From a virus: DNA of 64,000 nucleotides. Both the position numbers and the translations under genes were made by a program. Below the pieces are notes generated by a model. That model was not told the origin of the DNA, did not search any database, and saw only the letters and a list, made by a program, of their open reading frames with translations. The stretch spans positions 1 through 64,000 of IMG/VR virus record IMGVR_UViG_3300028029_000002; one strand, 5' to 3'. This document shows, piece by piece, positions 8,762 through 56,870 of this stretch (the stretch's first letter is position 1; each line of letters begins with the position of its first letter).

Positions 8762-9183
8762 GCAGGAGCCTCCAAGTCAACTAACTCTATAGCCACATCG
8801 AATTTATTTAACAATGGATCAAGGTTGTTTATATCAGATATACTTTTAAGCGCAACGCTCTTGATATACCCGGAATGATCCACTCCGTCGTCGACATGTA
8901 CATTGTCTATGAATTCTAACACTTTTCCAAGCAATGTACATAAGTAGTCGTATTCCGCTCGTGTAACCCGTAGCATGAATCGCCAGTCATGATGCACAAC
9001 CGGTAATCCATTCGAGTTTACAACACGGGCCACGTATGTATACCCGGTGTGAGAACGGCTCACGCCTATTTGGGCAGTTGGTATGTCACTGCGTTTAGTA
9101 GCTTTCCACCTTGCCGCTGGTGCATTGTCAATATCGCGTGGAACCAGTGGATCATCTAAGTGTATATGGCACTTAACAGTCAT
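8758..9183 (-). CDS. distal-tail-like small protein (141 aa)
   Basis: Immediately downstream of the tape measure, with overlapping stop/start codons. Confidence 0.5.
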   Translation of the reverse strand: MTVKCHIHLDDPLVPRDIDNAPAARWKATKRSDIPTAQIGVSRSHTGYTYVARVVNSNGLPVVHHDWRFMLRVTRAEYDYLCTLLGKVLEFIDNVHVDDGVDHSGYIKSVALKSISDINNLDPLLNKFDVAIELVDLEAPA

Positions 9184-15100: not shown

Positions 15101-18100
15101 TCTTGCCCTCTGCTATAGGTGCTTTAATTGCTTTGATCATGCTTCTGACGTAATGCCCTGCATCATCGCCGCTCGTCATACCCCCTATAATATCCCGAAT
15201 GAACCCGGATTTGAAGCCGCCTAACTGCATGCTGATGATATTATCTTGCGGCCCCATCGCACGAACGGACTTGCCCTCGAATGGGTTAAAGAACGTTCTG
15301 GCCGTTCGGTACAAGCGGGATATGGCATCTTCCTCTCGCTTAGTCAGCCCTTTCAAGTCCAAAGACCGCTGGTATAAGTTTGAAGCCTTTGCAATGTCTT
15401 CGTAGGCCTCAAGCATCTCTTTACCCTTGAGTCTCCCTTCGTCAACCGCGTTGAGAAATGCGCCGTTCAGTACGCGCAGGAAGGTATAAGTTGGCCCCAT
15501 ATTACGCTTAGCTTTAACGTAATCTATTGATCCTTGACTGATCTGTGCTGTTGTCGCAAAGAGTTCGTCTGGATCGTTGTTGACGTATTCACCGTCCCCG
15601 TTTCTCTTCACGAGTTTGAGCGACTTAAGGAATCGCTCCATTGGCGTGCCTTGTTCTGACTCGATCAGATCGTTCATGTCGCTGTAAATTGCCGACATCT
15701 GACTACCCGGAGCCGGATTCTCAGAGGCCATCCGCGCTAACGCCCCGGCAAATCGCTCGTCGTCAGATATGAGGTGTAACATTGCCTTGTCATCGGATGG
15801 ATCAACGCCGAAGGTTGCCCCACGTATTCCAGCACGGAATAATGTAACGTATCGATGCGCCTGCTTTATCGTGTCGACCCCTTGAGGTAACGCGCCCATC
15901 TCTAGCAATCTAGCCAAACTGTGTTTCTCAACTTGCCGGGCAGTCATGGCTTTCCCGCCAATATGCGCCTTGCGTAAATCGCCAGTCTCTTTGTCTAGCG
16001 ACACATTGCGCGTGAATTGAAGCAGGGCGGTGTCGAAGTCAACATCCGCCGACGCCGGTTCGTAAATTGAGTCAGAGGCCATTGTGTGTAACTGTTGGGT
16101 CATCGGGGCGTTCATCAATTCGAGAGCTATGTCAGATAATCCCTCTACCTCAAACGGATTGACCATACGCATTGGCAGAACTGAGTACAGAGGATCGGTT
16201 TCCGGTCTGCGGAAGAATGTTACCGCTTCGCCGTCAAGTTGGCTGTATAAATCGGACAGGATGTTCTGTTGCTCCGCAACATTCTCGGCTCGTGCCAGTT
16301 GCCCGCGCAGGCCGGGAACCATTTCTATCAGGTCTCGCGGCGGTATAAACACTCCACCTTCTGGCATGTTCATGTGGTATTGATAACCGACGTACAGCGC
16401 ATTGCGCAACTGCTTGTTTTGCACTCCGACATGTATGGCTTCTGTGTTAGCGAGTTCTTTCAATCTTGCGCGGTATTTGTCGACTCTGTCTATCTGATAC
16501 TCACCTTTGCTAGTCGTACTCGTCAGCAAACCAAACATCTCCCGGCTCGTACGTTCCAACTCTTCACCGGTTGCCGGATCAATGGTAGACATCTGCGCTA
16601 TTGCCGACAACGATGGCAGATAAACGTCGGTTCCCTCAAGGTGAATTGGGGCAACGGTGTCGAGTCCCTCGTATTTGCCTAGCAACTTCCTGAACAAGTC
16701 GGACGATCTGAAATTTGGCCCCTTCTTCTCGCGGATTTCATCCATCACTTCGTTAACAGTTTGAGCGGGAAGGGTCAGAATATGTTCGTCTTCCTTAACT
16801 GGGCTTCCCTCCATTATCTTGTTCGCCCTAATGATGGATGCGTTGGTCAGTTGCGCACGTCGTGCCTTGCGTTGTATCCCTTCGTACATTTCTGGGTTTG
16901 ACACTTTATACAGCATTGCCTCTTCTGAGTTCAATTGCGTGTTACCATGTGTAAACTCTGCCGTAACCGGGAACAAGGCGTCCATAGTCACGAACGAAAC
17001 TTTGTCTTGGTCTCCCATTTTGAGCGCGTATGATGCTGCCTGTGCGCCAGTCGTCAGGGAAATCTCCCCCTCGCCGGTCTGCGCTCGCTCGAAGAGTTGG
17101 CGCGTAGCCTCAATCATCTCTTCTTCGCTATAATCGCTGGTCAGGAAATCGTTAAATGTGTTGTCCCCGATGGCGTCAGCTACAGCCGTGGCAAATGAGG
17201 GCAGAGACTTTATGTCGTCTGATCCCAATACCATCGTCAGTCGTTTTCCGTCCTCACTCAACGCCTCCGCGTCACTCTCGCCAAAAAGCTCTTCTGCCAT
17301 TTCGTACGTGAGTGTACGCATATACGCCTTGATCCCCATGTGTTTGCTAGTAAAGTTTGAGGTGCGTGCTACCAGGGGCAGTGATATGGAAGCACCCTCA
17401 CCCTTGAAACCTTCCGAGGCGCGAAACTCTTTACTGTCTACGTTTAGCCCGACTTCCGAGTACGAGTTCCCCACAGCGAGATGCACGGGGACTTGTACGC
17501 TCTCACCCTTTTTCTGATCCCACTCCTTGCGGAAGCCTATGCGTATACGTCCATCGGCGGTACGGATTGTGTCACCCGATAGGAATTTATCATCCCAAGT
17601 GAATCCGTCTGGTACATCAAACCGTTTGTTCAATTGCGTTTCTGCCATCACTTGCTTGACGCCCTTCGGGAGGATGATATATCCCATACCCTGAGAGATG
17701 GCTCCGGTGTTTAGCACGGCCAGCCTATAATTATTCCCTCTGTTCGGGCGTGATGAAGACGAAGCTCCTTTGGTAACGCCAATCGCGCTTGTAATGCGGT
17801 CTTGCCTGCCAGCAGTCACCGCAAGTGGGCCTTGCGAGCGGAGGGCTTTCCATGCATCCTTTGCAAATTTCACGGCTTTGTACGACGGACGACCGATGAA
17901 ATATCGACCGCTTGCTGCTTTCGTCATGCCGGGGACTCTACTTAGATATTCATCCACAGGGAAGGCTACGATTCTTGATTCTTTGTCTCCGCCCTCCGTA
18001 TTTGTGTCGTTTGCTGGCCGGTACATAAGTCGACCAGGCTTTAGGTCTTGAATGTTTACGCCCCGCAATTGTATACTATTTGCATCCGTCCATGTCCTCA

Positions 18101-19703
18101 CTGGCGGTGCGCCGGGTGATGTATCCGGTCTAGTCAGCCCGCTGTTTTTGCCCTTAATACGGGCCGCCAGTGCGCGTTCCATTGCCTCGAATACACCCAC
18201 GCTTCGCGGAGTCTCAGCCGCCAATGTCGGGTCTACTCCGCGTTCCGGCTTATCAACGATTGGAGTTGCCGCATATCCGCCGATGACCGGGCCGTGCGGC
18301 GTGAGTTTTATGGGGATATTGTAATCTTGTCCACCCTGCGCAACTACCATAACCGAGTAGCCCGGACTGTATTCTCTGAACCCCATAACGGTATACCCGC
18401 CCGGTATTTCGTCACCGGTTTTCACCGTTTCTCCGCCGATACGTAATGCGCTCTGTGGTTTTCCGGCAATATATGTGAGTTCCGGCGAAAATCCGGTGTG
18501 GCTAATAGAAGTCCCCTGCGCTTGTGTGGCGGTAATAAGTCGTAATGCCTGGCTGGGGTCTCCGGCAACATCGTGTTGTATGGACACTCGACTTATGCTG
18601 ACACCACTATTGATCGTGGACAACAGGGCGTTCAAAGTTTCAAATTCTTTCTCCTCGCCGCCAACTGTTGCGGAGAATTTATCGCCCACTCCCACTCTAA
18701 CTGTTATGGGCACGGGTTTAACCGCTTTGGTCTTTCTGCTGAGTTGTACCGGCTTCCGTATTTTGATTTCCGGGACGGAGAACGTGGGTTGTGAAGACTT
18801 TGCGGTGGGGGCGGCTAAGGCAGCCGCTTGTAGAGCTTTCACGTCATCAGACGTAAGCTCTCCCGCTATAGCATGCTCGACAATCGAGGCTATTGCGGAA
18901 CCTGGCAACACGGAAGCGGCTCGTGCCAACCTAGCCTTCGTTTCCCGTGCATATTCTCCCGTGAGTGTCCAGGTACTGCGCTCGGTGGGCTGGCTTTGTT
19001 TCTCGCGCACGGTTTTGCTGTTGACGATGACTCCGCGTACCTCTATGTCGTCCGGGCCGTACTTGTACCAGTCTTTATATTTTGTCCCGGCAAGTATTGA
19101 TTGCCGTTGACCTTCGGGCAAATCGAACCATCTCTGGCGGTACTCGTCAAGTTGGGCTTGGTAGTTTTTTGTGTACCGGGCCGCGTGTGGCCCTTTGAAG
19201 TCGTCTATGACAATATATCTTTTCCCATTCACCTTAAGCAACACTATGGCATCCGGCCTGAAATAGCCTTGTGAGTGTTTCTTTGCAATGCTCTCTGGGA
19301 TAATGTGTTCCTGCGCGAGTTTACGCAGTGAGCTTTCGCGCTCATACTCTGTGGAACCAGATACTTGTCTGTCAAGGATTTTCTTGGCTTCGCTGGGGTC
19401 GCCCACTATATCTTCTAACGCATATTGCATCAGGTTGTGGGCCGTGTAGTTTCCACCACCTGTCGGATTGGACAGGTCTTTATCTATTGCGTTGTGGATT
19501 ACACTACCGGCTTGGAGCCATTCGGGGTTTACTTCTTCTAATCCGAGGGCACGCCGCAACAGATTACTGGCCTCTAGCGCGGCTGCTCTGTTGTCACGTG
19601 TTACGTTGTTTAGAACATAGTTTACTACTTGAAATACAGCGTCGGTATCAGTCTCGGTGTAACCTAACGAACTGGGCCATATCCCGTTTATATCGAACTT
19701 CAT
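9183..19703 (-). CDS. giant tape-measure-like protein (3506 aa) with a long non-TMP-like N-terminal region
   Basis: Single uninterrupted ORF. It has a Gly-rich hydrophobic segment (GIGGAAIGTGLVAANLASMLPMIAGSAGPIGLAATTL) and a Q/R-rich coiled-coil C-terminus. It sits after the chaperone-like gene and before the tail tip genes. Confidence 0.75.
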   Translation of the reverse strand: MKFDINGIWPSSLGYTETDTDAVFQVVNYVLNNVTRDNRAAALEASNLLRRALGLEEVNPEWLQAGSVIHNAIDKDLSNPTGGGNYTAHNLMQYALEDIVGDPSEAKKILDRQVSGSTEYERESSLRKLAQEHIIPESIAKKHSQGYFRPDAIVLLKVNGKRYIVIDDFKGPHAARYTKNYQAQLDEYRQRWFDLPEGQRQSILAGTKYKDWYKYGPDDIEVRGVIVNSKTVREKQSQPTERSTWTLTGEYARETKARLARAASVLPGSAIASIVEHAIAGELTSDDVKALQAAALAAPTAKSSQPTFSVPEIKIRKPVQLSRKTKAVKPVPITVRVGVGDKFSATVGGEEKEFETLNALLSTINSGVSISRVSIQHDVAGDPSQALRLITATQAQGTSISHTGFSPELTYIAGKPQSALRIGGETVKTGDEIPGGYTVMGFREYSPGYSVMVVAQGGQDYNIPIKLTPHGPVIGGYAATPIVDKPERGVDPTLAAETPRSVGVFEAMERALAARIKGKNSGLTRPDTSPGAPPVRTWTDANSIQLRGVNIQDLKPGRLMYRPANDTNTEGGDKESRIVAFPVDEYLSRVPGMTKAASGRYFIGRPSYKAVKFAKDAWKALRSQGPLAVTAGRQDRITSAIGVTKGASSSSRPNRGNNYRLAVLNTGAISQGMGYIILPKGVKQVMAETQLNKRFDVPDGFTWDDKFLSGDTIRTADGRIRIGFRKEWDQKKGESVQVPVHLAVGNSYSEVGLNVDSKEFRASEGFKGEGASISLPLVARTSNFTSKHMGIKAYMRTLTYEMAEELFGESDAEALSEDGKRLTMVLGSDDIKSLPSFATAVADAIGDNTFNDFLTSDYSEEEMIEATRQLFERAQTGEGEISLTTGAQAASYALKMGDQDKVSFVTMDALFPVTAEFTHGNTQLNSEEAMLYKVSNPEMYEGIQRKARRAQLTNASIIRANKIMEGSPVKEDEHILTLPAQTVNEVMDEIREKKGPNFRSSDLFRKLLGKYEGLDTVAPIHLEGTDVYLPSLSAIAQMSTIDPATGEELERTSREMFGLLTSTTSKGEYQIDRVDKYRARLKELANTEAIHVGVQNKQLRNALYVGYQYHMNMPEGGVFIPPRDLIEMVPGLRGQLARAENVAEQQNILSDLYSQLDGEAVTFFRRPETDPLYSVLPMRMVNPFEVEGLSDIALELMNAPMTQQLHTMASDSIYEPASADVDFDTALLQFTRNVSLDKETGDLRKAHIGGKAMTARQVEKHSLARLLEMGALPQGVDTIKQAHRYVTLFRAGIRGATFGVDPSDDKAMLHLISDDERFAGALARMASENPAPGSQMSAIYSDMNDLIESEQGTPMERFLKSLKLVKRNGDGEYVNNDPDELFATTAQISQGSIDYVKAKRNMGPTYTFLRVLNGAFLNAVDEGRLKGKEMLEAYEDIAKASNLYQRSLDLKGLTKREEDAISRLYRTARTFFNPFEGKSVRAMGPQDNIISMQLGGFKSGFIRDIIGGMTSGDDAGHYVRSMIKAIKAPIAEGKINQRFPYSPEELAMSIGTEHLSDNPVVKTIKDLIERVVPRTVLDAIADRAMNETGGVWKDEVVNATPQYYNRNLPGEMLDARISTGEAKLLRNLEKLPADEVARIASASAAPSFDPGRRRNVLLNERAEERKNIPVDAAAGFKASNFTVPTPDETQAVTATPAPENIPQPEAQINAQQNDIGEQLGGIMAQIFEMARRYTLPVVDYNSVGPRFLKGLSAMASGQFDPGLARRTKSVVAGQFDAAVDLVSNVKPPSIHTVNASNTLANILAATGRNPYMDAGMTRKIAYSQFGEGGAMAQSYQWQIRRAQEMMAIGEPTSQQGKQDWFRMTERLETSSKAILATAETMREAGFEDLAKSIESFAEPMAKLLPSFQKTSEAILSGEYTAGAEAVKEIPEDISNMALSLASTLEERDKIRSKDITALKKYIGVIGQERFDAIQERYDKQELNAAITGPESKPTNYTPLTTTQKKQMSPLYLSIDDMQKALDAPPPPAPEQQKRAAALVAALRQRKKITSTDMAVLKEQGDAVSLADLEEIQALYKQQRLDAAITGKEKKQAPISQQDAARAQGLLSTLQSRDVLSRKDLSALKIVESALDPKAVAEIKARYEQQVIDAAQNRVDVSPERKEAANVMMQSLRERSDSLNYNEITAAKAGAKGMPELEKEVAKFEEQWRIRRIQSVGSDAKSSAAPAPKVSEERLAAAQETLDVLLKNADSLTLGDLQKVGPGFTGIPGMAEQIGALKENIRKRYLEAATKKFTAPDTEAVATEVETATAETTQPSGVIRGRISKTKTTSGGARGVQVEVNPETLAMATALSDKLLNGEVSKDDMTLARKFSNVLSPDVMSSLETRFAQQSAQRRIDGPQTQTDEQFVALLKKATPVMRGWVENLEKMSKSLENNKRKLTKEEVAEVQRGREVFRKYKEIAGQAGEMSDEERQLVERGDVASLGIGMFGDKPERGGIKGFFERLKNPRTGLGSDLFFTSRMFRQFLQPLIGGGEQYQQYQNQMNAYRMMGGAGIDRGSQNVVENLQQMKMSRMRTGGYIMAGANGMLGGDGLGSQTVSDVLGIGGAAIGTGLVAANLASMLPMIAGSAGPIGLAATTLTGLTLGGLRVAGEAKDTDKMKAEVAAGNASPANRLFVAREYAKQGNYTSAYNDAALPYWTDIKKDFESTGNVNGATRSYMFGSRGGKEFESLRVGISGGATGEMRDERLQIAGSLWGNVATTGMRRAVPGNEFQSRGAEIGTMLGNVLDTRLVGLSPEATYQMSLSWVQAMGEGKTTEAAQLDFLKQAFTGSAYENMSIKGMLPQAMSGFLQYAGAKQGMGQVVTKSIEDFSQENQSVTERAGLAQYYSTANALGSLGLTYNDSFVAQAGQLPLQSQRDSLVRSEAQMFNTLPLLTKEVQSLVTGMEVAVPGRVDPLYGMQTLPVDEEFVQKQNDAMRMLTQVQSGNPWAASKMKSESLWDALPDVLQSWFGGGESMPAIFQKQTTRGFQIGYENLPSSDTELGQAMRYGFKVDGEQYQGIESYIGQGGTFEAAMHNAFVGFAQDAIPIQVAHKGLDAIEKFGSGDGMMPAFGAVEGKGLQQLQIESAAEGYRDSMFKLSLQFEDLADNLKFVPEKLDIQDQLFNIGVQKQREQMQDSWSRFEIQWQWGMDDLLKNFNRSMTRIGWSESDLNFRQNTSQLDFAWAMEDIQENLKYATGRQRRALLRQQDRGTIKFALGQSQIDEQRSRLDIQRQWAEEDFNTAQDRHNKRMEWESTRFARQNAYFEQETALRMRLNAINRAMTMNQLNRQQRSLQNAQQHLRLTYAQQRAIQAIQMTVQNFQAGVSKITNEGARSVEIFGSLSASLRSAAAGARRLRSALGGGVSTGRIKYYANGGYTGEGGTAVLHPGEYVLNSNLTKTFEQRVGPLTNSNLNALANSGDPRVISVLQQILGAIVSQDVRSVNVSVNTNDARAGAVEGLSIAKELELS

Positions 19704-37914: not shown

Positions 37915-38262
37915 TTATTCCATAATTCTGTCTATGAGTACGGCGGTCATGATGTCTCCCCGCTCCACAAAATACAAACACACTTCTCCTTTGCAATATG
38001 GAGTCGTGATGTCCGGTGTGGCTTTGATCTCTATCTTCGGCGTTCGGATTTCTATTCCGTTCCCAGTTACTACCCGCGTGTAACGACGGATTGCTAGGTC
38101 TAACACGTTGCTCGGTAAGGCCATCGCCGAAAAGTCAATCTTGACCTCGCGGCGTAATCGCTTCACTCGCTCGTATGTCCCTCTGTCTATTATGTATACG
38201 AGATCGTCTCCAATATAAATGCCGTTCCCGCGTGGCGTGCTGACGAATGTTCCTTTTTTCAT
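37915..38262 (-). CDS. hypothetical protein (115 aa), first gene of the leftward operon
   Basis: RBS GGGAG. MKKGTFVSTPRGNGIYIGDDLVYIID...GNGIEIRT. Confidence 0.65.
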   Translation of the reverse strand: MKKGTFVSTPRGNGIYIGDDLVYIIDRGTYERVKRLRREVKIDFSAMALPSNVLDLAIRRYTRVVTGNGIEIRTPKIEIKATPDITTPYCKGEVCLYFVERGDIMTAVLIDRIME

Positions 38263-38317: not shown

Positions 38318-38427
38318 GTTTAAATTTTTTTTCGCGGGAAGAGAGGATTAGTGTCTGGTTCACGATGTCAAAGTGAACCGGGGGGTATCTTTATATCTCT
38401 CATGGACGCTTGGATGTTGTCAGCAAA

Positions 38428-38709
38428 CCCACCTAGCAATAGGAAGGGACAATAAGAACACAAGCCGGGACGCCTGATGAGGGAAATACCCGTGAAGTTG
38501 TTCGACCACCACGTTGTGATACTCGCGTGGCTAAACAAGTCTAGTATCACCCCACGTTTCACAGGGTAGCGTGGTTAATCTTCACCCTGGTGTCGTTGTT
38601 CGCCGTTGACAAAGCTTCGGTCAACCGCGTGTAGTATCCAGAAGCCGTTGTGCTGATGCCTCACCGCAAGGGAGGAACAAGTAGGCATGACGCAACCATG
38701 GAGGTTGAA
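38428..38709 (+). ncRNA. conserved structured leader element, copy 1
   Basis: Shares blocks with 39529..39817: an identical 21-mer, the loop ACGCCTGATGAGGGAA and an identical 38-mer. At least three helices show compensatory differences between copies. Confidence 0.6.
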
Positions 38710-39030
38710 ATGTATTCCAATAAAGAAATTCGTGCCACGTCGTCCGCTAAGGTTGTTCAGATGCTGTTTGTTATTGCTGCAATCATTGTGTTTGTGGCGA
38801 TAGCGGTTCCGTATGTTCTCTCGACCGTTCGCACGGTCGAAGTCGCCAGCGGTGGCGACTTAACGGCGGTGGGTTGTCAGGCGGAGTACACCACCTGGCA
38901 AGATGGGGGCGAATTCCCCTCACAGACGTGCTCCGAAAGCACGTCCGGTATTGAGTTGTGGTGTGAGAACCACAACGTTACCGATGGAAAAATGGCGCAG
39001 GCATGCGCCAACGTCAAGGCGGGTAAGTAA
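38710..39030 (+). CDS. membrane-anchored Cys-containing small protein (106 aa; start refined)
   Basis: GGAGGT-5 nt-ATG at 38710. TM segment VVQMLFVIAAIIVFVAIAVPYVL. Confidence 0.6.
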   Translation: MYSNKEIRATSSAKVVQMLFVIAAIIVFVAIAVPYVLSTVRTVEVASGGDLTAVGCQAEYTTWQDGGEFPSQTCSESTSGIELWCENHNVTDGKMAQACANVKAGK

Positions 39031-39031
39031 G

Positions 39032-39223
39032 ATGGCCCGCCTTGAAGCGTCATCGAACGGCGTGTTCCTCTTCACGTGGGAAGGGGAGATCGTGCGGGAG
39101 AAAACAGCCGCAGTGCGTTATGCGCTGTGGCACGGTGTCCGTATTTCAGCCGAGGCTCGGAAATTGCTTGCGGCTGAGATCGCCCTCGTCATGTCCGAAT
39201 TGGAGGCGCAGTATGACCTCTAA
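39032..39223 (+). CDS. hypothetical protein (63 aa)
   Basis: ATG lies 1 nt after the preceding stop; in-frame portion of track ORF 38903..39223. Confidence 0.45.
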   Translation: MARLEASSNGVFLFTWEGEIVREKTAAVRYALWHGVRISAEARKLLAAEIALVMSELEAQYDL

Positions 39224-39467
39224 TTCAGTCGTGGCGCACCGGGTCACACCAGACCCGGTGTTGGACGAATGGTTCCCCCGCCAGCATAACGTCAGTGCGA
39301 TTGACGTTATGCTGGCACACGCCCTGTCAGAGAAACGGCAGGGCGTTCGGGTTGAATGGGACGTGTATCAAGCGGCCCAGCACGAGGGGTATACCCTCAA
39401 GAACGTTGTGGTGGTGGGTGCGCCGATGCCCCCGAAGCCGCAACGGCGGGGGCTACGTTGGCGGTAG
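39213..39467 (+). CDS. hypothetical protein (84 aa)
   Basis: GGAGG-6 nt-ATG at 39213; in-frame portion of track ORF 39042..39467. Confidence 0.5.
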   Translation: MTSNSVVAHRVTPDPVLDEWFPRQHNVSAIDVMLAHALSEKRQGVRVEWDVYQAAQHEGYTLKNVVVVGAPMPPKPQRRGLRWR

Positions 39468-39484
39468 CCCCCATTCATGCGTAG

Positions 39485-39511
39485 CCCCCTCACATTGCGA
39501 TGTAGAGGGGG
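39485..39511 (+). terminator. terminator-like hairpin
   Basis: CCCCCTC(acat tgcg atgta)GAGGGGG followed by TTGGTGTTGG. Confidence 0.5.
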
Positions 39512-39528
39512 TTGGTGTTGGCATAAAG

Positions 39529-39817
39529 CCCACCTAGCAATAGGAAGGGCGTATATAGGACACTAGCCTGGGACGCCTGATGAGGGAAGTACCCAGGAAG
39601 CATGTCCGCACACCACGTATGTTCTGACGTGGCTAAACAATGTGCAGAACACCCCCACGTTCTATAGGGTAGCGTGGTTAATCTTCACCCTAGCGGATGT
39701 CCATCCAATCCATTGCAGAGATTACTCCGCTTGGCAATGTGTGCGTTAGGAGTTGCCGTGCTGATGCCTCACCGCAAGGGAGGAACAAGTAGGCACGGTA
39801 TGACCCAGGAGGTCGAA
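39529..39817 (+). ncRNA. conserved structured leader element, copy 2
   Basis: See copy 1. It precedes the RNAP-like gene directly and ends in GGAGGT-5 nt-ATG. Confidence 0.6.
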
Positions 39818-42097
39818 ATGTCCAAGATTTATAAAGCAGTAGAGTTGGTAGTTAAGAATACCTCGATCACGATTGAGGATAAGGGCAGCACTAATGCCGC
39901 CCGTGATGACCGCATGAAGCGGTACATCACATCCGAGGTAGAGAGAGAGTGTCTAGCCGCCCACATCGGGTGGTTGGACAGCAGCACTTTCGTCAGTATC
40001 CCCCACACGGGCGTCGATGGCAAAGCAATTGACGTTGACTCCTACCAGCAGTTATTGGTAGGGGCACAGGGTAGTGGCGTATTAGTCGCCACACAAAGTG
40101 GCGAAAAGGCGGGGAACTACATCCGCCTGACCGCCGAGGCGTGGGAGCGGTTCGCCGCGCCCCTGCGGGGGAAAGTCAGGGGCGCGAAAGCCTTGCAGGT
40201 GGCGGGGTTGTTATTCTCCGCCACGACGAAGGATCAATATTCCGTTGAGTCCGCAGTCGTCATCACCCCCGGCCATCCCCTTGACCGGGGGCAAGATGGT
40301 AATGGGATGGCCCCGAAATCCCTGACCCCCACCACCGTCCAGGTGCGGTTCGCCGCCCTGGACGCGGCTGGCGAAGTTGACGCCAGCCGTGTGGGTAAGG
40401 GGATTCTCAGCCCCACGTCCCCCGATGGGAGGGTGTATTTGCACCACTCCCAATTGAAAGGGGCATGGGACATTGCCCCCTGGGAAGAAGGACAAGAGGA
40501 AATCGTTGTCAGCGTCCTCGTTCTTCGGAATGAGGGCGTTTCCGCTGAGCGCATTATGCGCGACCCGGAGACCGGAAAGGTCTCACTCCGCGCAAAGCGG
40601 AGTTGGATGAGCAGTGAAGTCACCGCCCTCTTCTCACCGTCAGCCAATCTTCACCTGGCGGAAGGCGGGGAGGGGATTCATTCCCAGAAAGTCCGCCGTG
40701 AGGTCGAGAACCTCACGGGGATGTTCAGCGAGGAGGGGCGTGTTTCCCTTCTCAAACGCTGGGGCGGGCTAGAGTTGGACGAGGAGGGCCATTTGCTGCC
40801 CTCCAAGAACGCGGGCATTGAGGCTCTTCGTACCCCCCTGCCCTGGTGCAGGGAAGTAGAGGAATTGCTGGGGCGTTTCGCTGTACCAGAAGTGGTACAG
40901 ATAGCTCACGGGGCTGGCATCCCCGTGAAGGTATCGCTTCTCGTCCAAGACGAGAAGTACGGACGCAAGCCCATCTCCCTGAAAGCCGCCCTGAAGAGGG
41001 TGGCGGAAGGGAAGCGGGTTTGGGGACTCTATCGGGTTCCCGTAACGGGCACACAGGCGATCCAGTGGTTCACCCGCGCCCCTTATAAGAGGGGTATCGG
41101 GTTCGTGATCGCTCCGTCCGCCGCGAAAGGCATGGACGGGGATAGCGACGGAGACCCCGGATACCAAATTGACCCAAAGGACGCGCCCGCAGTGGCGCAG
41201 TCCCTGGATACGCGCTTGAGCGGGTCTGGCAAGCCCGCTAAACAGGCGAAGCCGGATTTTCCGCTCAATAGTATGTCCGTCTTGGAGTATTGGATGGACA
41301 TGCTTGTCCATCACCCCCTCGTGGGGCGTGCCACGACCCTGTCGTGGCGTCTCATGCGGGATGGTCGCCACGAGGACGCTGTGTTAGCGTCCACGGCGGC
41401 CAACGCCGCCCCGATGCTGGCGAAGCATCGGGTGGACATTGACGGCGAAGCCGTCTCCGACATCGTGTACCGTCTTTCGGAGGAGGAACGTGCCCGCGCT
41501 CCGAAGACCGGAGATGGATACTCCATCATTGCGCCATTGCAATGGCGCGATTGGAAGGCGGCGTCGAAGCCGCTCCGTTCCCTGCGCCAAATGGCGTGGG
41601 GCAACGGTTCCCCGGAGAGCGTTCTCGACGAGTTGTCCATCGTCGCCACCCGCGCTGTCGAAGCGTGGGCGGCGAAGCCCGTTGGGGAACTCACGTTCAG
41701 CCGCACCGCCCGGTTGGTCTTCGCCCGTCGAGGGCGGTTGTTGCCGGGATGGGCGGTGCGCTCCGCCGCTCGGATCCGGGCCGAGTGGGCGAACTTCTGG
41801 ATCGCCCACATCCGCCGCGAAGGAGATAAAGTCTCCTTCATCGGCAATGATTTTGATACGATCTACAACGCCGTCCGCGAGTGGGGCGCGGCGGCTGATG
41901 TAGAGAGTCTTGCGGCATTGATGTCGCACCGCCGCAAGAGCGGCGAATCAATGCGGCTCAAGTGGGCCGCAATCTTCGACACCCACCGAGGTGTCGAAGT
42001 GTTGGGCCTCCACCCAGCGGTGGAGGAGGCATTGGGCGCGGACTACAAACGCGCCAAGTTAGTGGACGCGCTGGTTGCGTCCCTTGAAGAGGAGTAA
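39818..42097 (+). CDS. YonO / RdRP-like single-subunit two-barrel RNA polymerase candidate (759 aa; start refined from 39674)
   Basis: Motif ...GLYRVPVTGTQAIQWF...GFVIAPSAAKGMDGDSDGD, with DSDGD encoded at 41141-41155. This resembles the R-x-P...aP....DxDGD catalytic loop of the DPBB RNAP/RdRP family. Size is similar to YonO. Confidence 0.55.
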   Translation: MSKIYKAVELVVKNTSITIEDKGSTNAARDDRMKRYITSEVERECLAAHIGWLDSSTFVSIPHTGVDGKAIDVDSYQQLLVGAQGSGVLVATQSGEKAGNYIRLTAEAWERFAAPLRGKVRGAKALQVAGLLFSATTKDQYSVESAVVITPGHPLDRGQDGNGMAPKSLTPTTVQVRFAALDAAGEVDASRVGKGILSPTSPDGRVYLHHSQLKGAWDIAPWEEGQEEIVVSVLVLRNEGVSAERIMRDPETGKVSLRAKRSWMSSEVTALFSPSANLHLAEGGEGIHSQKVRREVENLTGMFSEEGRVSLLKRWGGLELDEEGHLLPSKNAGIEALRTPLPWCREVEELLGRFAVPEVVQIAHGAGIPVKVSLLVQDEKYGRKPISLKAALKRVAEGKRVWGLYRVPVTGTQAIQWFTRAPYKRGIGFVIAPSAAKGMDGDSDGDPGYQIDPKDAPAVAQSLDTRLSGSGKPAKQAKPDFPLNSMSVLEYWMDMLVHHPLVGRATTLSWRLMRDGRHEDAVLASTAANAAPMLAKHRVDIDGEAVSDIVYRLSEEERARAPKTGDGYSIIAPLQWRDWKAASKPLRSLRQMAWGNGSPESVLDELSIVATRAVEAWAAKPVGELTFSRTARLVFARRGRLLPGWAVRSAARIRAEWANFWIAHIRREGDKVSFIGNDFDTIYNAVREWGAAADVESLAALMSHRRKSGESMRLKWAAIFDTHRGVEVLGLHPAVEEALGADYKRAKLVDALVASLEEE

Positions 42098-42397
42098 AAT
42101 CCTCCCCCCTGACACCGTGGGGGTCACAGCAAAGGTGTCGGTGCGCCGCATTGCGGTTCCTGTGCAACTCAGGATTAAAGCACCGTGTCGGTAGTCAAAC
42201 CGACGCTCAGGTTGGTGTAAGCAAGCATTTGCCGTGTCCTGACTTCCTGGGAAGCAGAACATAGCAAATGTGCGGTAGGACAACGGGACGATCTCCTGGG
42301 AGACGCGAAGTTGTTCCTGCCCGCTTGCACCAACCTGCCGCTCCACAGGAGTGGGGCCAGGGGTATGGTCAGCGATTGCGTAAGACCTCCTCCTTAA

Positions 42398-42441
42398 GGG
42401 GGATACAAGGTATAACGCAGCCTTGTATCCCCCGCTTTTTC
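42398..42441 (+). terminator. intrinsic terminator
   Basis: GGGGGATACAAGG-tataacgcag-CCTTGTATCCCCC followed by GCTTTTTCT. Confidence 0.75.
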
Positions 42442-42549
42442 TAAGGGACGGTGAACAGGCGGGCGCATGAAGCAGCTTGCCATATCACCGCCCCTTAGAA
42501 AAGGCCGGGAGGATCGGCCTATTATTCATTATAACCTGGGAGGTTTATT

Positions 42550-42855
42550 ATGTTTTCCATTAGCTATACGAAACATGGTGATGTTGAGACTGTGGTGTAT
42601 CAATGTGGCTGCGTGAAAGTCAACAATCAATTGCGTCGTTGTGCCGCGCATCAACGCGAGCACGAACGGCAAGTTGAGGCCAAACGCCTGCGCTTGCAAG
42701 CACGAGCCGTGCTGCACTTGCGCTCCCCACTGTCGTTTAGCGAGGGCGCATGGGTCGTCCGCACCCTCCGTGGAAAGAGTACTGTTGCGGAGTACCGCAA
42801 CCTCGTCACCCTGCACCGCACGCCGCGTGAAGCGGCGCGTGCGGTGTGTCATTAG
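42550..42855 (+). CDS. hypothetical protein (101 aa)
   Basis: RBS GGGAGG upstream of ATG. Confidence 0.6.
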   Translation: MFSISYTKHGDVETVVYQCGCVKVNNQLRRCAAHQREHERQVEAKRLRLQARAVLHLRSPLSFSEGAWVVRTLRGKSTVAEYRNLVTLHRTPREAARAVCH

Positions 42856-42973
42856 TCTGATTTGGGGGCGGGTAGCAATACTCGCCCCCAACCTTTTTCT
42901 CGGCCCATCACCCGCTGGTAGGCCGAGAAAAGGGCTGCTGTTCCTGCCCCTCACACACCATATAGGAGATATT

Positions 42974-43387
42974 ATGACAACCAAGAAGCAAGTATTCACC
43001 ACTATCGCCGTCGAGCGCGGCGATATTATCACCGGCGTTTACAAGACGCCGGGGCGTCCCAAGCAAACCGTGACTCTCGAAGTTGAAGCGGTCGTGAAAA
43101 CCGACCGTCGAGAGTACGTGATCGGCACCCCCCTGTCCGGGATGGACTGGGCGGGTTCTCGTGTGGCCTTGAAGCCTCAGTGCTTCTGGGCCAGCACGCT
43201 AGAGGTGTCGAAGGGCACGGCGGATCTCCGCCCGTTGCCCGAAAACCTGTTCGTTTTCGCCTCCTACTCCGCGTCCTTCGGGATGATGGAAGAGGTAGAA
43301 GATGAAGACGTTGCGGAAGCCGAGATTCAGGGCGGTGTCCGCATTGAAACCTTGCTCGTCCCGTTCGCGGAGATGAAGCAACTGTAG
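42974..43387 (+). CDS. hypothetical protein (137 aa; start refined from 42641)
   Basis: RBS AGGAG-6 nt-ATG at 42974. Confidence 0.6.
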   Translation: MTTKKQVFTTIAVERGDIITGVYKTPGRPKQTVTLEVEAVVKTDRREYVIGTPLSGMDWAGSRVALKPQCFWASTLEVSKGTADLRPLPENLFVFASYSASFGMMEEVEDEDVAEAEIQGGVRIETLLVPFAEMKQL

Positions 43388-43397
43388 TACATACCCT

Positions 43398-43429
43398 ACA
43401 GCCCCCAGCAATTCACCGCTGGGGGCTGT
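43398..43429 (+). terminator. strong hairpin (terminator candidate, weak U-tract)
   Basis: ACAGCCCCCAGC-aattcacc-GCTGGGGGCTGT. Confidence 0.45.
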
Positions 43430-43443
43430 GAGGTGCGTATTAC

Positions 43444-43471
43444 TTGCACCCTGCGGGCGTTGTGCTATCAT
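43444..43471 (+). promoter_or_regulatory. sigma70-like promoter (-35 TTGCAC, 16 nt, TGc-TATCAT)
   Basis: Read directly. Palindrome copy 4 starts about 14 nt downstream of the -10. Confidence 0.45.
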
Positions 43472-43484
43472 TGTGATAGTACAT

Positions 43485-43502
43485 TGGTTCGCATGCGAAC
43501 TA
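43485..43502. repeat. palindrome copy 4 (TGGTTCGCATGCGAACTA) followed by TTTTT
   Basis: Read directly. Confidence 0.85.
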
Positions 43503-43744
43503 TTTTTAAGGCCGGAGCGTGCCTCCCTCTAGCACAGGGGCATGACGCTTGAGTACCGGCCAAAATCATTGCTAGGTGAGTGCTAGACACCCAGCAAGCG
43601 GTAGTGGCTTTCATCGCGGGTATCTGCCACCGTTTACACGGCAATCCTGTGTCCCGTCAGGTAAGCCACCCCGCACAAGGGCGACCGCGGCCCAATCGAG
43701 TTACCCCAGCCCCGTGGTGCAAGCTGGGATAAAAAGGAGAAAAG

Positions 43745-44062
43745 ATGGAATTTGTCAATCTAACACCTCATACGATCAATATTCACAACGAGAGCGATGA
43801 ACTCGTTCTCACCGTTCCCCCCAGCGGAAAAGTAGCGCGAGTAGCAGCCCCGCGTCGTCAGTTCGCCCAGATCGACGGCGTCGGCATCTACACCGTCGCC
43901 TACGGGGAGATCGAAGGTCTCCCCGCGCCCCAAGAGGGCGTCCGTTACATCACCAGCGGTCTCGTGCGCACTCGCGCCGACCGCAGTGATGTATTCTCCC
44001 CCGGCCCGCTGTTGCGGGACGAGGACGGTCGCCCGATGGGGTGCATCGGGCTGAATGGATGA
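43745..44062 (+). CDS. hypothetical protein (105 aa)
   Basis: RBS AAGGAG; preceded by a leader of about 270 nt. Confidence 0.65.
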   Translation: MEFVNLTPHTINIHNESDELVLTVPPSGKVARVAAPRRQFAQIDGVGIYTVAYGEIEGLPAPQEGVRYITSGLVRTRADRSDVFSPGPLLRDEDGRPMGCIGLNG

Positions 44063-44406
44063 AATTCTGGCATTACGCCAGAGTGCCAGACACCGTCATG
44101 GCCAGCGATGAATACGCGCTGGTGGACGGTGAGTTCTGGTATTTTCCCGAACTCGACATCCCAGAGGAGGCAACGCGAGTTGTGTTCGCCGCCCCTGTGG
44201 GATACGGGTGGTGGAAAAGAGATCGGCGCGAACACCTGATCGTCATCGATGTTCCCGATGACACGCTGGTGTTTGCCGGGTTCCCCAGCCGCAAGCGGGT
44301 CAAGATGACCGCCCGCGAAGCGGCTCAGTTGCCTGTAGAAGTAACAACGGGCAACTGGGATGGGTACGAGGTCATCATTCCAGAGGATTTAGTACAGCGC
44401 GTCTAA
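44059..44406 (+). CDS. hypothetical protein (115 aa; start refined)
   Basis: ATGA overlap with the preceding stop. Confidence 0.55.
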   Translation: MKFWHYARVPDTVMASDEYALVDGEFWYFPELDIPEEATRVVFAAPVGYGWWKRDRREHLIVIDVPDDTLVFAGFPSRKRVKMTAREAAQLPVEVTTGNWDGYEVIIPEDLVQRV

Positions 44407-44428
44407 CCCACGCGCTGTACTTTTTTTT
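44392..44428 (+). terminator. intrinsic terminator
   Basis: GTACAGCGCG-tctaaccca-CGCGCTGTAC followed by TTTTTTTT. Confidence 0.8.
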
Positions 44429-44650
44429 ACCGGCCCTACACCTGTTTCTGGGCTTTCCAGAGACCCTCACGTCGTGCCACGATGCGGAGGTGCTTACCAC
44501 ACCTCGCGGCTACAGGGGAGTTATGCCCCCCTAATGAGGCCCGACTCGCCACCGGGTATAAACCGCGTGAGGGTTTTCGGAAAGGTTGGAAACCGGCTAG
44601 AGGGCGTTAGGCAAAACTTGGAGAATGGTTGGAACAAAAGGAGAAAAACA

Positions 44651-44959
44651 ATGGATAAAATGAAATTCAATGAGCTGCTCGACATTGCGAACGCCGAGAT
44701 CAATGACGACCATAGCTTCTACCTAATCGCCGCGTTGCGAGCGTGCAACAACGGCGATTTGCAGGAGGCGGCGAATCTCGTAGTGCTAGAAATAGCACGA
44801 GCGAGGCTGTTGAATACCCCACCGAACCGGATTGGTCATACAGAGTACATCTCTGTAGAAATCACAGGAACCATCGCTTCCTGTAAATACGGAGATAAAG
44901 ACCACACTGTAGACATCAGCGTAGACATCAGCGATGTAGCTGATTTCTACATGCCTTGA
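44651..44959 (+). CDS. hypothetical protein (102 aa; start refined)
   Basis: RBS AAGGAG-8 nt-ATG at 44651. Confidence 0.6.
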   Translation: MDKMKFNELLDIANAEINDDHSFYLIAALRACNNGDLQEAANLVVLEIARARLLNTPPNRIGHTEYISVEITGTIASCKYGDKDHTVDISVDISDVADFYMP

Positions 44960-44965
44960 TGAAAG

Positions 44966-45349
44966 ATGACTCGCAAATCCACCAGATTTGCCAACTTCGT
45001 GTTTCAGCTAGTTGCAGCGGCTGAATACACCGGGCAAATCTCTGACCTGCAAGCCACCAACTTCCTGCGCGGGCTACTGAAAGCGTGGCACGTGCAGGAT
45101 GACGAGGTGGCCGAGTTCCTGTGGCGCACCTACACCCGCTATCTCAGCAATGGATACGCGGGCGGTGCGCTAATTGACGCCGAAAGCGCACGCTGGATTG
45201 TTAACCAGCTTGTCGCCAAAGGCGTAGACGTGGATTGGGAGCGGCTGGCAGTGTCCTTGTACCTATCCCGCCGCACGTCAAAAGCCGATGGACGCGAGTC
45301 TCTAGCATCGCGTCCGCATGGGCAGTGGTGGGTTGCCGTCTGCGAATAG
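44966..45349 (+). CDS. hypothetical protein (127 aa)
   Basis: ORF directly following the previous gene; weak RBS. Confidence 0.5.
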   Translation: MTRKSTRFANFVFQLVAAAEYTGQISDLQATNFLRGLLKAWHVQDDEVAEFLWRTYTRYLSNGYAGGALIDAESARWIVNQLVAKGVDVDWERLAVSLYLSRRTSKADGRESLASRPHGQWWVAVCE

Positions 45350-45380
45350 TAGTGTATACTATCAAGTAGATAGCACGTTT

Positions 45381-45442
45381 ACACCCGAAATGCACGAATT
45401 TGCACGCTTTTGTGTGATTTTGTCGCCTTTTCGGGTGTTTTT
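45381..45442 (+). terminator. long-loop hairpin with U-tract (terminator candidate)
   Basis: ACACCCGAAA ... TTTCGGGTGT followed by TTTT, with a 38-nt loop. Confidence 0.35.
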
Positions 45443-45542
45443 ACACAGAGGATAGCGTAAGTCGACCAAGTCAACACATTCCGACCACTTTCTATCCATC
45501 GCCGAGTTACGATCCTCGGTTCGCAACTCGAATAGGAGGAGC

Positions 45543-46100
45543 ATGAAAAGCTACATTGACCGATACAGCGACGCTGTATACAATTTCAACGAGGCTTGGT
45601 TCAGATACTTCTCTGAACTAAAGAAACTCGTGGGCGAGAAAGCCCACACCCACAAAGTCTGTCCAACCTGCGGCAACAGCATCGCCCGCACGGAAAACGG
45701 ATACAAGTGCGAGTGTGGATGGACAGTAGAGTGGCGGATGGTACACCACTCAGGAGGTATAGAAGACTATTCCATGCGCGGGGAGGTAGTAGGGTCTATC
45801 TATATGGACGCCTACTCACGCAAAGAGCGGTTCGGAACTCCCCCACGAATCGTACAGACGGAGTGGGAAGACGAAGACGGAGTAACCCGCGCCGCGTATC
45901 CAGTCTTCGGACGAGGAGTAAGCTCCTCATACTACTGGATAGAGAGGGGGCACAAAGAAAACCCCTCCCTATACGAGGAATATCTGAATTTCATATTAAC
46001 GACCCGCCCGCCAGAGATCACGGGGCCGTTAACATTTGAGGAGGCGTGCGATATAGCAAGGGCGGCCTCCCCAATAAACAAAGCAAGGATTGTGCCATGA
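45543..46100 (+). CDS. zinc-ribbon protein (185 aa)
   Basis: RBS AGGAGGAG; CPTCG...CECG. Confidence 0.65.
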   Translation: MKSYIDRYSDAVYNFNEAWFRYFSELKKLVGEKAHTHKVCPTCGNSIARTENGYKCECGWTVEWRMVHHSGGIEDYSMRGEVVGSIYMDAYSRKERFGTPPRIVQTEWEDEDGVTRAAYPVFGRGVSSSYYWIERGHKENPSLYEEYLNFILTTRPPEITGPLTFEEACDIARAASPINKARIVP

Positions 46101-49799: not shown

Positions 49800-50276
49800 A
49801 TGACACTCAATATAGACGAAGAAATCAGAGCCATAGAATCAATGTTCCTCACTTCTGAACAGATAGAAGGTTACATCGATATGGCCCTTCACCCGAAAGA
49901 GGGCTGGCTTGACAACCTAGCATTCTCAAGCGCATGCATGGCATCGCAAATCAGAATGGAACGGTTCAAAAAAGGTTTTCCGTTAGAAAGCTTTGTCACT
50001 CAACGGGCCGCAACAGAGGCAGTTAAATGTCTCTATATGTCACAGCAAGACAAAGAGCGGGCACTGGCGATCATACGCGAGAGAACTATATCGCAAGCCA
50101 ATGTAGCAGTCGCGTTTGCGAGAGCAAGTTCACTCCTATCAATTCTGGACGAGATCGAAGAACTCGACCTCGACCACAACGATTACGGCGAATTGTTAAG
50201 AATCTTATATCACACTCCGCCATGCGAATACGCCGATGTATTAAAGTCCGCAAAGCGTAAATACGTACGGAATTAG
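49800..50276 (+). CDS. hypothetical protein (158 aa; start refined)
   Basis: RBS AAGGAG-5 nt-ATG. Its stop codon TAG is the first triplet of palindrome copy 5. Confidence 0.6.
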   Translation: MTLNIDEEIRAIESMFLTSEQIEGYIDMALHPKEGWLDNLAFSSACMASQIRMERFKKGFPLESFVTQRAATEAVKCLYMSQQDKERALAIIRERTISQANVAVAFARASSLLSILDEIEELDLDHNDYGELLRILYHTPPCEYADVLKSAKRKYVRN

Positions 50277-56797: not shown

Positions 56798-56870
56798 GCG
56801 GGTATAGCCTAATGGATAAGGCGACTGTCTTCTAAACAGTAGAGTGCAGGTTCGAGTCCTGCTACCCGTA
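56798..56870 (+). tRNA. tRNA-Arg (anticodon UCU)
   Basis: Cloverleaf read by eye: acceptor GCGGGTA/TACCCGT (one G-U), D stem GCCT/AGGC, anticodon stem ACTGT/ACAGT with loop CTTCTAA, T stem GCAGG/CCTGC with loop TTCGAGT, discriminator A. Confidence 0.85.

Follow-up and report, generated by a model that had tools for sequence, protein, structure and literature searches.

A complex leader RNA in two copies in the early region of an uncultured phage

What is the element that occurs twice, ahead of the start codons at 38710 and 39818, in the virus record IMGVR_UViG_3300028029_000002 of IMG/VR? Positions 1 to 64,000 of this record, here called the window, are part of a ~80-kb metagenomic phage contig, and the lineage to which the phage belongs is essentially unannotated. 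Both stretches are copies of one non-coding plus-strand RNA with a complex fold. Together with related leaders from two other phages they make up five instances, in three uncultured phages, of a real, uncatalogued and complex leader RNA whose building blocks include a reusable pseudoknot module of phages.

Two copies of one folded RNA

A preliminary description of this locus, made from the sequence alone, had listed coordinates, shared blocks and stem strands for the two copies. Every one of them was exact on re-location in the window.

38428 to 38691, plus strand: leader copy A, structured core from P1 to the 3' strand of P5
39529 to 39799, plus strand: leader copy B, core
Starts at 38428 and 39529, plus strand: identical 21-mer
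Starts at 38470 and 39573, plus strand: shared block ACGCCTGATGAGGGAA
Starts at 38529 and 39631, plus strand: shared block GGCTAAACAA
Starts at 38563 and 39666, plus strand: shared 26-mer
Starts at 38650 and 39758, plus strand: shared 38-mer
38700 and 39808, plus strand: GGAGGT, followed by ATG at 38710 and 39818

Each core measures ~265 nucleotides (nt). The same blocks were recovered by a repeat finder, which detected no third copy in the 64-kb window. Aligned to each other, the copies are identical at 206 of 293 columns (70%), with identical runs of 38, 26, 21, 19 and 13 nt. When the 87 differing columns were placed at random, a run of 38 nt was reached in none of 5000 shuffles; the differences are therefore strongly clustered, and they lie outside the loops and junctions. 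Because the indels between the copies are 1, 1, 1, 1, 7, 2 and 2 nt long and stop codons interrupt all six frames of both copies, the element is non-coding, and a protein-coding reading is ruled out.

Related leaders were found via the genomic contexts of homologous proteins. A metagenome scan together with the protein database gave nine related contigs in total, and homologous leaders are present in only two other metagenomic phages: L003, with two copies at the same two positions as in the window, and L005, with a partial one, as its contig starts inside a leader copy. The L003 leader termed L3b (~2100-2356) is clearly homologous to the window leader (nhmmer E-value 4e-8), and L3a (~845-1014) is more diverged. 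The protein most similar to that of the window (52% identity) is encoded in L002 and L007, where the leaders are short and lack the core element, and L001, L004, L008 and L009 carry other large conserved non-coding elements in its place. Among 50,697 GenBank phages, no DNA or protein relative of the leader region was detected; the contig as a whole has a single distant match, a portal protein 25% identical to those of Streptomyces phages. IMG/VR yielded no further homologue by exact blocks, protein or profile searches (a hairpin pattern gave 25 chance matches), nor did the GTDB genomes or the JGI metagenome collection contain further leader relatives. In an independent assembly of the same phage (L006, a contig of 79,429 bp), position 1 corresponds to window position 39766, 52 nt 5' of the gene for a 759-amino acid (aa) protein that follows copy B; this break lies in the shared 38-nt block and is probably an assembly break at the repeat.

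From 5' to 3', the fold consists of hairpin P1, helices P2 and P3, which enclose a conserved loop, a pair of H-type pseudoknots (stems S1 and S2), a variable hairpin, and a 3' domain in which an internal loop joins P5 to P6. All helices listed here were checked for complementarity by script.

38428 to 38448, plus strand: P1 of copy A, GNRA tetraloop hairpin CCC-A-CCUA-GCAA-UAGG-AA-GGG
39529-39549, plus strand: P1 of copy B, identical to copy A
38456-60/38499-503, plus strand: P2 of copy A, GAACA/UGUUC, enclosing P3
39558-62/39603-07, plus strand: P2 of copy B, GGACA/UGUCC
38466-69/38489-92, plus strand: P3 of copy A, CGGG/CCCG
39567-72/39592-97, plus strand: P3 of copy B, CCUGGG/CCCAGG
38470-88, plus strand: conserved 19-nt P3 loop of copy A, ACGCCUGAUGAGGGAAAUA
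38509 to 38550, plus strand: pseudoknot unit 1 of copy A, loop 3 CUAAACAAGUCU
38509-14/38525-30, plus strand: S1 of this unit, CCACGU/GCGUGG
38516-23/38543-50, plus strand: S2 of this unit, GUGAUACU/AGUAUCAC
39613-50, plus strand: pseudoknot 1 of copy B
38552 to 38588, plus strand: pseudoknot unit 2 of copy A, loop 3 UUAAUCUUC
38552-57/38569-74, plus strand: S1 of this unit, CCACGU/GCGUGG
38563-67/38584-88, plus strand: S2 of this unit, AGGGU/ACCCU
39655-91, plus strand: pseudoknot 2 of copy B
38601 to 38629, plus strand: variable hairpin of copy A, GUUGAC/GUCAAC (38605-10/38620-25) with a CGC/GCG extension
39692-39754, plus strand: variable region of copy B
38647 to 38691, plus strand: 3' domain of copy A (P5, internal loop, P6)
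38647-53/38685-91, plus strand: P5 of copy A, GUUGUGC/GCAUGAC
38659-75, plus strand: P6 of copy A, GNRA hairpin CCUC-A-CC GCAA GG-GAGG
39755-99, plus strand: P5 and P6 of copy B, with P5 as GCCGUGC/GCACGGU

In the two-copy alignment, the 58 pairs of this fold are standard pairs in 99.1% of cases, compared with 35-40% when the partners are slid against each other. The 15 stem substitutions between the copies are made up of five double compensatory changes and five single changes compatible with G-U pairing, and nine G-U pairs are compatible with the plus strand only. The observed values were matched by 9 of 500 shuffles of this alignment. Minimum-free-energy z-scores (-0.9 for copy A, -2.7 for copy B) are weak evidence when taken alone. 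The comparison across phages draws on five leader instances, too few for statistics of the R-scape type; P3, S2, P5 and P6 keep their pairing with changed sequences in L003 and L005. The paired substitutions and the helices kept in two other phages thus uphold the earlier proposal of a structured plus-strand leader RNA under selection, which can now be extended by both pseudoknots, by P5 as a covarying outer stem and by a separate Shine-Dalgarno (SD) hairpin.

In L003, the inner stem of P1 reads CCCA/UGGG (L3a) or CCCUA/UAGGG (L3b). P2 shows a double change from A-U in copy A to G-C in copy B. The contrast of CGGG/CCCG with CCTGGG/CCCAGG in P3 had been described as a C:G to U:A swap; the difference is real, but it consists of an indel and a bulged U in copy A and not of a clean swap. 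P3 of L3b is CUGUGU/ACACAG, and in every leader compared the conserved ACGCCU of the P3 loop adjoins this helix. A long-range pairing of the P3 loop (UGAGGG/GGUAGC) with a segment 26-36 nt 5' of P1 can be drawn in four leaders, but does not rise above chance (shuffle p-values 0.12-0.66) and is no more than a possibility.

The two tandem pseudoknot units (~43 nt each) are about half identical to each other, and L003 possesses one. In each of them, the sequence between the strands of S1 pairs with a segment 9-12 nt downstream, forming S2, and the third loops are A-rich (CUAAACAA, UUAAUCUUC, AUAAACAU, AUAAAUAU). S2 of unit 1 is GUUCUG/CAGAAC in copy B and differs from copy A by two double changes. 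Its earlier presentation as GTGATACT/AGTATCAC versus GTTCTG/CAGAAC holds as far as these two changes are concerned, but the helices are not wholly different, their registers overlapping. L3b forms S2 with UACUGU/ACAGUG, and L3a contains a unit of the same topology with S1 as GGCAA/UUGCC and S2 as ACCCUG/CAGGGU. S1 is invariant in the units of the window type and is therefore unproven by covariation there, the sole covariation of this stem being GGCAA/UUGCC in L3a. The sequence of the variable hairpin is conserved neither in copy B nor in L003 and L005.

The outer stem P5 has five distinct sequences in the five leaders and pairs in all of them; besides the two window versions these are GCAUGC/GCAUGU, CCUACUC/GAGUAGG and CAUUGCGUUG/CAACGCAAUG, with per-sequence shuffle p-values of 0.008-0.16. 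Inside it lies the internal loop UGAUG x AACAAGUAG; these two strands and ACGCCUGAUGAGGG are the invariant bases of the loops and junctions. P6 has one additional C-G pair in L003.

Known RNA families and a shared pseudoknot module

The absence of the element from Rfam, as first suggested, was borne out: searches of the whole window, of 1.65 kb and of 166 nt, at the gathering score and at E<=10, returned only a tRNA elsewhere. This includes the models of riboswitches with H-type pseudoknots (preQ1-I/II/III, SAM-II/V, fluoride), none of which matched, and neither ARAGORN nor the Rfam tRNA model found a tRNA or tmRNA in the element. A hammerhead ribozyme, to which CUGAUGA in the P3 loop (38474-80) might point, was rejected: no stem I is possible, the candidate stem II is followed by GUGAAG or AGGAAG and not by the GAAA core, and no Rfam hammerhead model matched. 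Also rejected was a type III antitoxin (ToxI-like) or a phage mimic of one, as the units are only half identical, L003 has a single one and no ToxN-like gene is located nearby.

The pistol ribozyme called for a closer comparison. L001 contains a pistol (RF02679) at 9557-9629 on the plus strand, inside the 774-nt leader of a 760-aa homologue of the 759-aa protein. This copy served as positive control and scored 53.9 bits (gathering score 34.5 bits), whereas the window had no match even at E<=10 (1651 nt and 166 nt searched). The window units resemble pistol in having a P1 hairpin whose loop pairs downstream and which is followed by an A-rich linker (AUAAAUA in pistol, CUAAACA and UUAAUCU in the window, and GCGUGG-AUAAAUA in L005). 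However, they lack P2, the UUAG-G segment and the GAGCG-U cleavage region: the gap between linker and pseudoknot is too short for the 5' strand of pistol P2 plus UUAG, and the sequence 3' of the pseudoknot differs between the copies. Membership in the pistol family is ruled out by the covariance model and by the missing P2/P3 cleavage junction.

A second point of comparison is the put RNA of phage HK022, an antiterminator that acts in cis by binding RNA polymerase, which is ~70 nt long and exists in two similar copies per genome, putL and putR, downstream of the early promoters (PMC9378689). According to cryo-electron microscopy, its stem I combines a duplex (3-7/15-19) and a third strand (21-25) lying in the minor groove, and its interface with the polymerase is formed mainly by stem II (~37 nt) and the A9-G35 pair, a platform that binds the beta' zinc-binding domain (PMC9378689). 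We located putL in HK022 as AU-AGACG-AA-CGGCG-CGUCU-UUAAACCAUG-CGUCG-G, which fits the published numbering exactly. Like put stem I, the window units are of the H-type, with a first stem of 5-6 bp, a second stem 0-2 nt away and an A-rich third loop, the UUAAAC of put corresponding to CUAAACAA, AUAAACAU and AUAAAUAU; order and lengths of the elements agree, and a triplex would be expected in the window units by analogy. Both systems also have two similar copies in early transcripts, the first one near the promoter. The first stems of put differ in sequence (AGACG/CGUCU in putL, UACCG/CGGUA in putR). The window element is four times the size of put, with GNRA hairpins and a further pseudoknot. 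No conserved counterpart of stem II or of A9-G35 was found in the window, where pseudoknot 2 or the variable hairpin follows instead, and the apical and internal loops of P5/P6 differ from those of put stem II.

A third occurrence emerged from an IMG/VR search with a pattern derived from a window unit, CCACG-N5-20-GCGTGG-NTAAAYA. It matched more than 119 contigs, most of which represent one enterobacterial prophage family with a 35-nt unit, CCACG-(N)-GCCGGG-CGUGG-NUAAAYAU-CCCGGC (loci L039-L157, e.g., L043 at 5237, L054 at 11337 and L061 at 4268). As the search pattern was taken from the window, the likeness of the identical first stem CCACG/CGUGG and the near-identical third loop NUAAAYAU exists partly by construction. 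The second stem lies outside the pattern and covaries, with double changes in four of its six pairs and a score that none of 500 shuffles reached. In Escherichia coli NZ_CP063503.1 (~2232059; L158) the unit is found between gene Q and the holin gene and is followed by a terminator, and elsewhere it precedes the SD sequence by 8-10 nt; its location is the start of the short late-promoter RNA of lambdoid prophages. It has no Rfam gathering match and only a weak isrK likeness. Unlike the window units, which are part of a larger fold, it stands alone, with a terminator or an SD sequence next to it. A covariance model (R1) built from 28 prophage members (alignment A9) and run on 87 kb gave weak scores for L005 (14.2 bits, E 0.11), L003 (12.6, 0.32), copy B (10.7, 1) and copy A (9.5, 2.1), and it misses putL.

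Since the numbering of putL matches the published duplex and third strand (PMC9378689), put stem I, the prophage unit, pistol P1/pseudoknot and the window units share one architecture. The first three look like versions of a single module with an A-rich third strand, which suggests that phages reuse it at the 5' side of their transcripts. This links put stem I and pistol P1/pseudoknot to a widespread and apparently undescribed pseudoknot of lambdoid late transcripts, and the module offers constructs with which questions of self-cleavage, polymerase binding and RNA stabilisation can be addressed.

The early operon and the possible role of the leader

Where the leader stands bears on what it might do. 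The last leftward gene of this region ends at 38262, and the rightward genes begin 3' of a motif at 38371-38388.

38371 to 38388, plus strand: promoter-like motif AAGTGAAC-N-GGGGGG-TAT, with the G run at 38380-38385
38710 to 39467, plus strand: three small coupled open reading frames (ORFs) between the copies, overlapping or abutting
38710-39030, plus strand: ORF1, predicted membrane protein, 106 aa
39032-39223, plus strand: ORF2, 63 aa
39213-39467, plus strand: ORF3, 84 aa
39448 to 39511, plus strand: pair of G+C-rich hairpins separating ORF3 from copy B
39448-72, plus strand: the first of these, GGGGGCUAC/GUAGCCCCC
39485-91/39505-11, plus strand: the second, CCCCCUC/GAGGGGG, then UUGGUGUUGG
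39818 to 42097, plus strand: gene for the 759-aa protein, standing alone
42398 to 42443, plus strand: strong intrinsic terminator with a stem of 14 bp, then GCUUUUUCU

The motif AAGTGAAC-N-GGGGGG(-TAT), which in part overlaps an inverted repeat, GGTTCAC (38357-63)/GTGAACC (38373-79), occurs once in the window and heads the rightward genes, once each, in L001 (7616), L002 (580), L003 (778), L004 (662) and L007 (577). It is probably a clade-specific early promoter, and transcription would start in its G run. The terminator at 42398 probably marks the operon end, and the whole looks like a single rightward early operon from ~38380 to ~42440 with one leader copy before each translation unit. L003 and L001 have homologues of ORF1-3, in unchanged order. 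The G+C-rich hairpins at 39448-39511 were not called by the terminator scan; they may represent a weak terminator or a processing site. The leader had originally been placed upstream of a phage RNA polymerase gene. Copy B does precede the 759-aa gene, but copy A precedes the 106-aa membrane protein ORF, and the identity of the large product as an RNA polymerase received no tool support.

Translation initiation is served by a hairpin of its own.

38693 to 38712, plus strand: initiation hairpin of copy A, CAACC/GGUUG (38693-97/38703-07), with SD GGAGGU at 38700-05 and ATG at 38710
39801 to 39820, plus strand: initiation hairpin of copy B, UGACC/GGUCG (39801-05/39811-15), with SD GGAGGU at 39808-13 and ATG at 39818

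This hairpin of 5-6 bp lies directly 3' of P5, each core ending 1-2 nt before it, and its stem covaries (CAACC/GGUUG, UGACC/GGUCG, UGACC/GGUCA, CAAUCC/GGAUUG). It holds the SD sequence GGAGG in its loop, with the 3' half in the stem, 2-5 nt 5' of the start codon. Early genes of the relatives have it with or without a large leader (L002 647-662 and 1300-1315; L003 1022-1037 and 2357-2375). Because the hairpin is kept in the core-less L002, the core is an accessory insert 5' of an initiation region that is complete in itself, which weakens models of a direct translational switch.

If the fold is true, the core is an uncatalogued and unusually large cis-RNA of the first transcript in a lineage without relatives among sequenced phages. 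We lean, tentatively, toward a function in transcript maturation and protection. The core would act in cis and influence what becomes of the polycistronic early transcript, marking and protecting the 5' side of every cistron that follows, either via a site for a host nuclease or other host protein or by self-cleavage. Such a role would be comparable to that of the RNase III sites before gene 0.3 and gene 1 of phage T7, and to the one that the pistol ribozyme would have in the equivalent L001 leader. The polycistronic early mRNA of T7 ends at a terminator and contains RNase III sites before the first early gene and before the polymerase gene; in both phages, structured elements thus precede the first early gene and a large gene of one terminator-ended transcript. 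Several features favour the maturation role: each cistron has one copy in front of it, the core is independent of the initiation hairpin and is distributed as an accessory element, L001 has its pistol at the corresponding position, and T7 offers an analogy. The G+C-rich hairpins ahead of copy B and the terminator that bounds the operon also speak for it. Several points weigh against it. The T7 sites are single interrupted hairpins of ~60 nt, and simple RNase III sites need neither 265 nt nor two pseudoknots nor conserved loops. No Rfam ribozyme model matched a catalytic core in the element, the region after pseudoknot 2, where the cleavage site would lie in pistol, is not conserved between the copies, and the argument from the L001 pistol is one of position only.

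Since the size of the core and its invariant junctions are unexplained by simple processing, we keep a new self-cleaving ribozyme in consideration. It is doubtful that the core represents a new class of self-processing ribozyme, composed of a pistol-like pseudoknot and GNRA-hairpin domains and cutting before each cistron; if it did, it would do in this phage what pistol would do at the equivalent position in its relative. Large RNAs that combine pseudoknots with GNRA loops and invariant junctions have in many cases proved to be ribozymes or sophisticated sensors.

Among the alternatives to maturation, a put-like activity comes next, although we consider it rather unlikely: the nascent leader would bind the transcribing polymerase and confer resistance to pausing or termination. 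It would account for the stem I topology of the pseudoknot units and for the two copies downstream of an early promoter, and potential targets exist in the hairpins downstream of copy A and the strong terminators downstream of copy B. However, put is much shorter, and an equivalent of its stem II or A...G pair is not conserved in the window. Window units reach no more than 9.5-10.7 bits (E 1-2) with the prophage model, which misses putL, and the same pseudoknot stands immediately 5' of a terminator in lambdoid late leaders, so that the module alone does not imply antitermination.

Less probable again is a translational operator or riboswitch whose conserved loops and pseudoknots bind a protein of phage or host, or a small molecule, and thereby switch the two downstream units. 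Sequence-invariant loops combined with covarying stems would suit such an RNA. An H-type pseudoknot with an A-rich third loop is also the architecture of the preQ1-I and SAM-II aptamers, which the window units recall. P6 pairs an anti-SD-like CCUC with an SD-like GGGAGG 25 nt 5' of the real SD, and each copy ends 1-2 nt before the SD hairpin. Yet no alternative pairing between core and SD is conserved, the SD hairpin being self-contained and core-less in L002; P6 of L005 lacks the SD-like sequence, the core is not followed by a terminator, and none of the Rfam riboswitch models matched.

We regard it as improbable, slightly more so than a switch, that the core is released from the early transcript as a stable trans-acting RNA, which would capture a host factor as a decoy or sponge in host takeover or anti-defence. 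Expression first in infection, the presence of two copies, the accessory distribution with absence from the closest relative, and a compact fold with nuclease-resistant modules would all agree with it. Type III toxin-antitoxin systems have antitoxins of repeated pseudoknots (tandem repeats of 34-45 nt), of which phage mimics exist, and the two tandem ~43-nt units with invariant sequence recall them. But each leader has only two diverged units, or one in L003, and a decoy does not account for the rest of the conserved fold. Finally, a DNA-level repeat (operator, promoter, replication or packaging site) or a neutral recent duplication is very hard to credit: the CCACG...CGTGG inverted repeats could bind a protein and the long identical blocks could stem from gene conversion, but the stem changes are compensatory and include G-U pairs, whose counterparts on the opposite strand would be A-C mismatches, other phages form the helices from unrelated sequences, and the strongly clustered differences spare loops and junctions.

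Other elements of the early region and the window

The 759-aa protein has an invariant G-D-x-D-G-D at residues 441-446, and the tentative label 'RNA polymerase' derives solely from recognition of this motif by eye. Among 5.8 billion protein clusters it has five relatives only, giving a family of six clusters, and it had no match in Pfam, PHROGs, a PDB sequence search, Foldseek or tblastn on phages; its AlphaFold model is poor (predicted local distance difference test score, 52.8). The gene is followed by a conserved non-coding region.

42098-42397, plus strand: ~300 nt of conserved non-coding sequence 3' of the 759-aa gene

This region is conserved in L002/L007 (nhmmer E-value 5e-18) and L003 (2e-12). 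Its near-invariant core, GGUGCGCC...GGUUCCUGUGCAACUCAGGAUUAAAGCACCGUGYCGGUA, folds into a junction of several hairpins, hairpins of the CYCCUGGGRG type recur in it, and neither ARAGORN nor Rfam gave a match.

The relatives contain additional structured elements. A 55-nt element, CCCCUGCUCAGAGGAUGCUNGCUGG...CCAGGGCAGGGAUUA, a hairpin whose 5' internal loop is conserved, lies 5' of the large gene in L002 (1210-1265) and L003 (1935-2000); the window lacks it. A second, larger non-coding element (~300-470 nt) occupies the early regions of more distant relatives (L004 1056-1529, L008 925-1385, L009 1-285, L001 9228-9556) and has no Rfam match. Its blocks include GUCUGGGCCUGAWGAC and GGGCGGAAUGCNCCCCUGAAAYCUGAUAGAYAUGGGG, and in L004 and L008 it ends with a pseudoknot (CUGGC/GCCAG, CUCAGA/UCUGAG, third loop CCUAAA). 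The idea that the window leader is homologous to this larger element of L001, L004 and L008 was rejected: a GNRA hairpin with CAAGUA after it is shared, but the outer stem is unsupported there. Phages of the L001 type further possess a structured leader of ~160 nt, AGCCCUGACCGAUGGGC...GGUAGGCUGCUUGGCGAUGGUCAAGCAGU... (L001 8060-8220, L035 570-720).

Strong intrinsic terminators lie between the rightward genes of the window at 42398-42433, 42862-42891 and 44391-44421 (plus strand), and 15 terminator-like sites were counted in 39300-46000, compared with 6.1 expected. The palindrome TAGTTCGCATGCGAACTA has six copies in the window (7812, 20737, 36669, 43482, 50271 and 58136). Those at 50271 and 58136 stand ~25 nt 5' of an SD sequence and ATG, and the one at 43482 is followed by TTTTT; the palindrome may serve the later genes as a promoter, an operator or a bidirectional terminator. 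Neither Pfam nor PHROGs gave a match for an ORF of 3506 aa at 9183-19703 (minus strand). The phage also encodes a tRNA at 56798-56870 (plus strand; RF00005, 74.6 bits), whose anticodon loop reads, from the alignment, as UCU (Arg).

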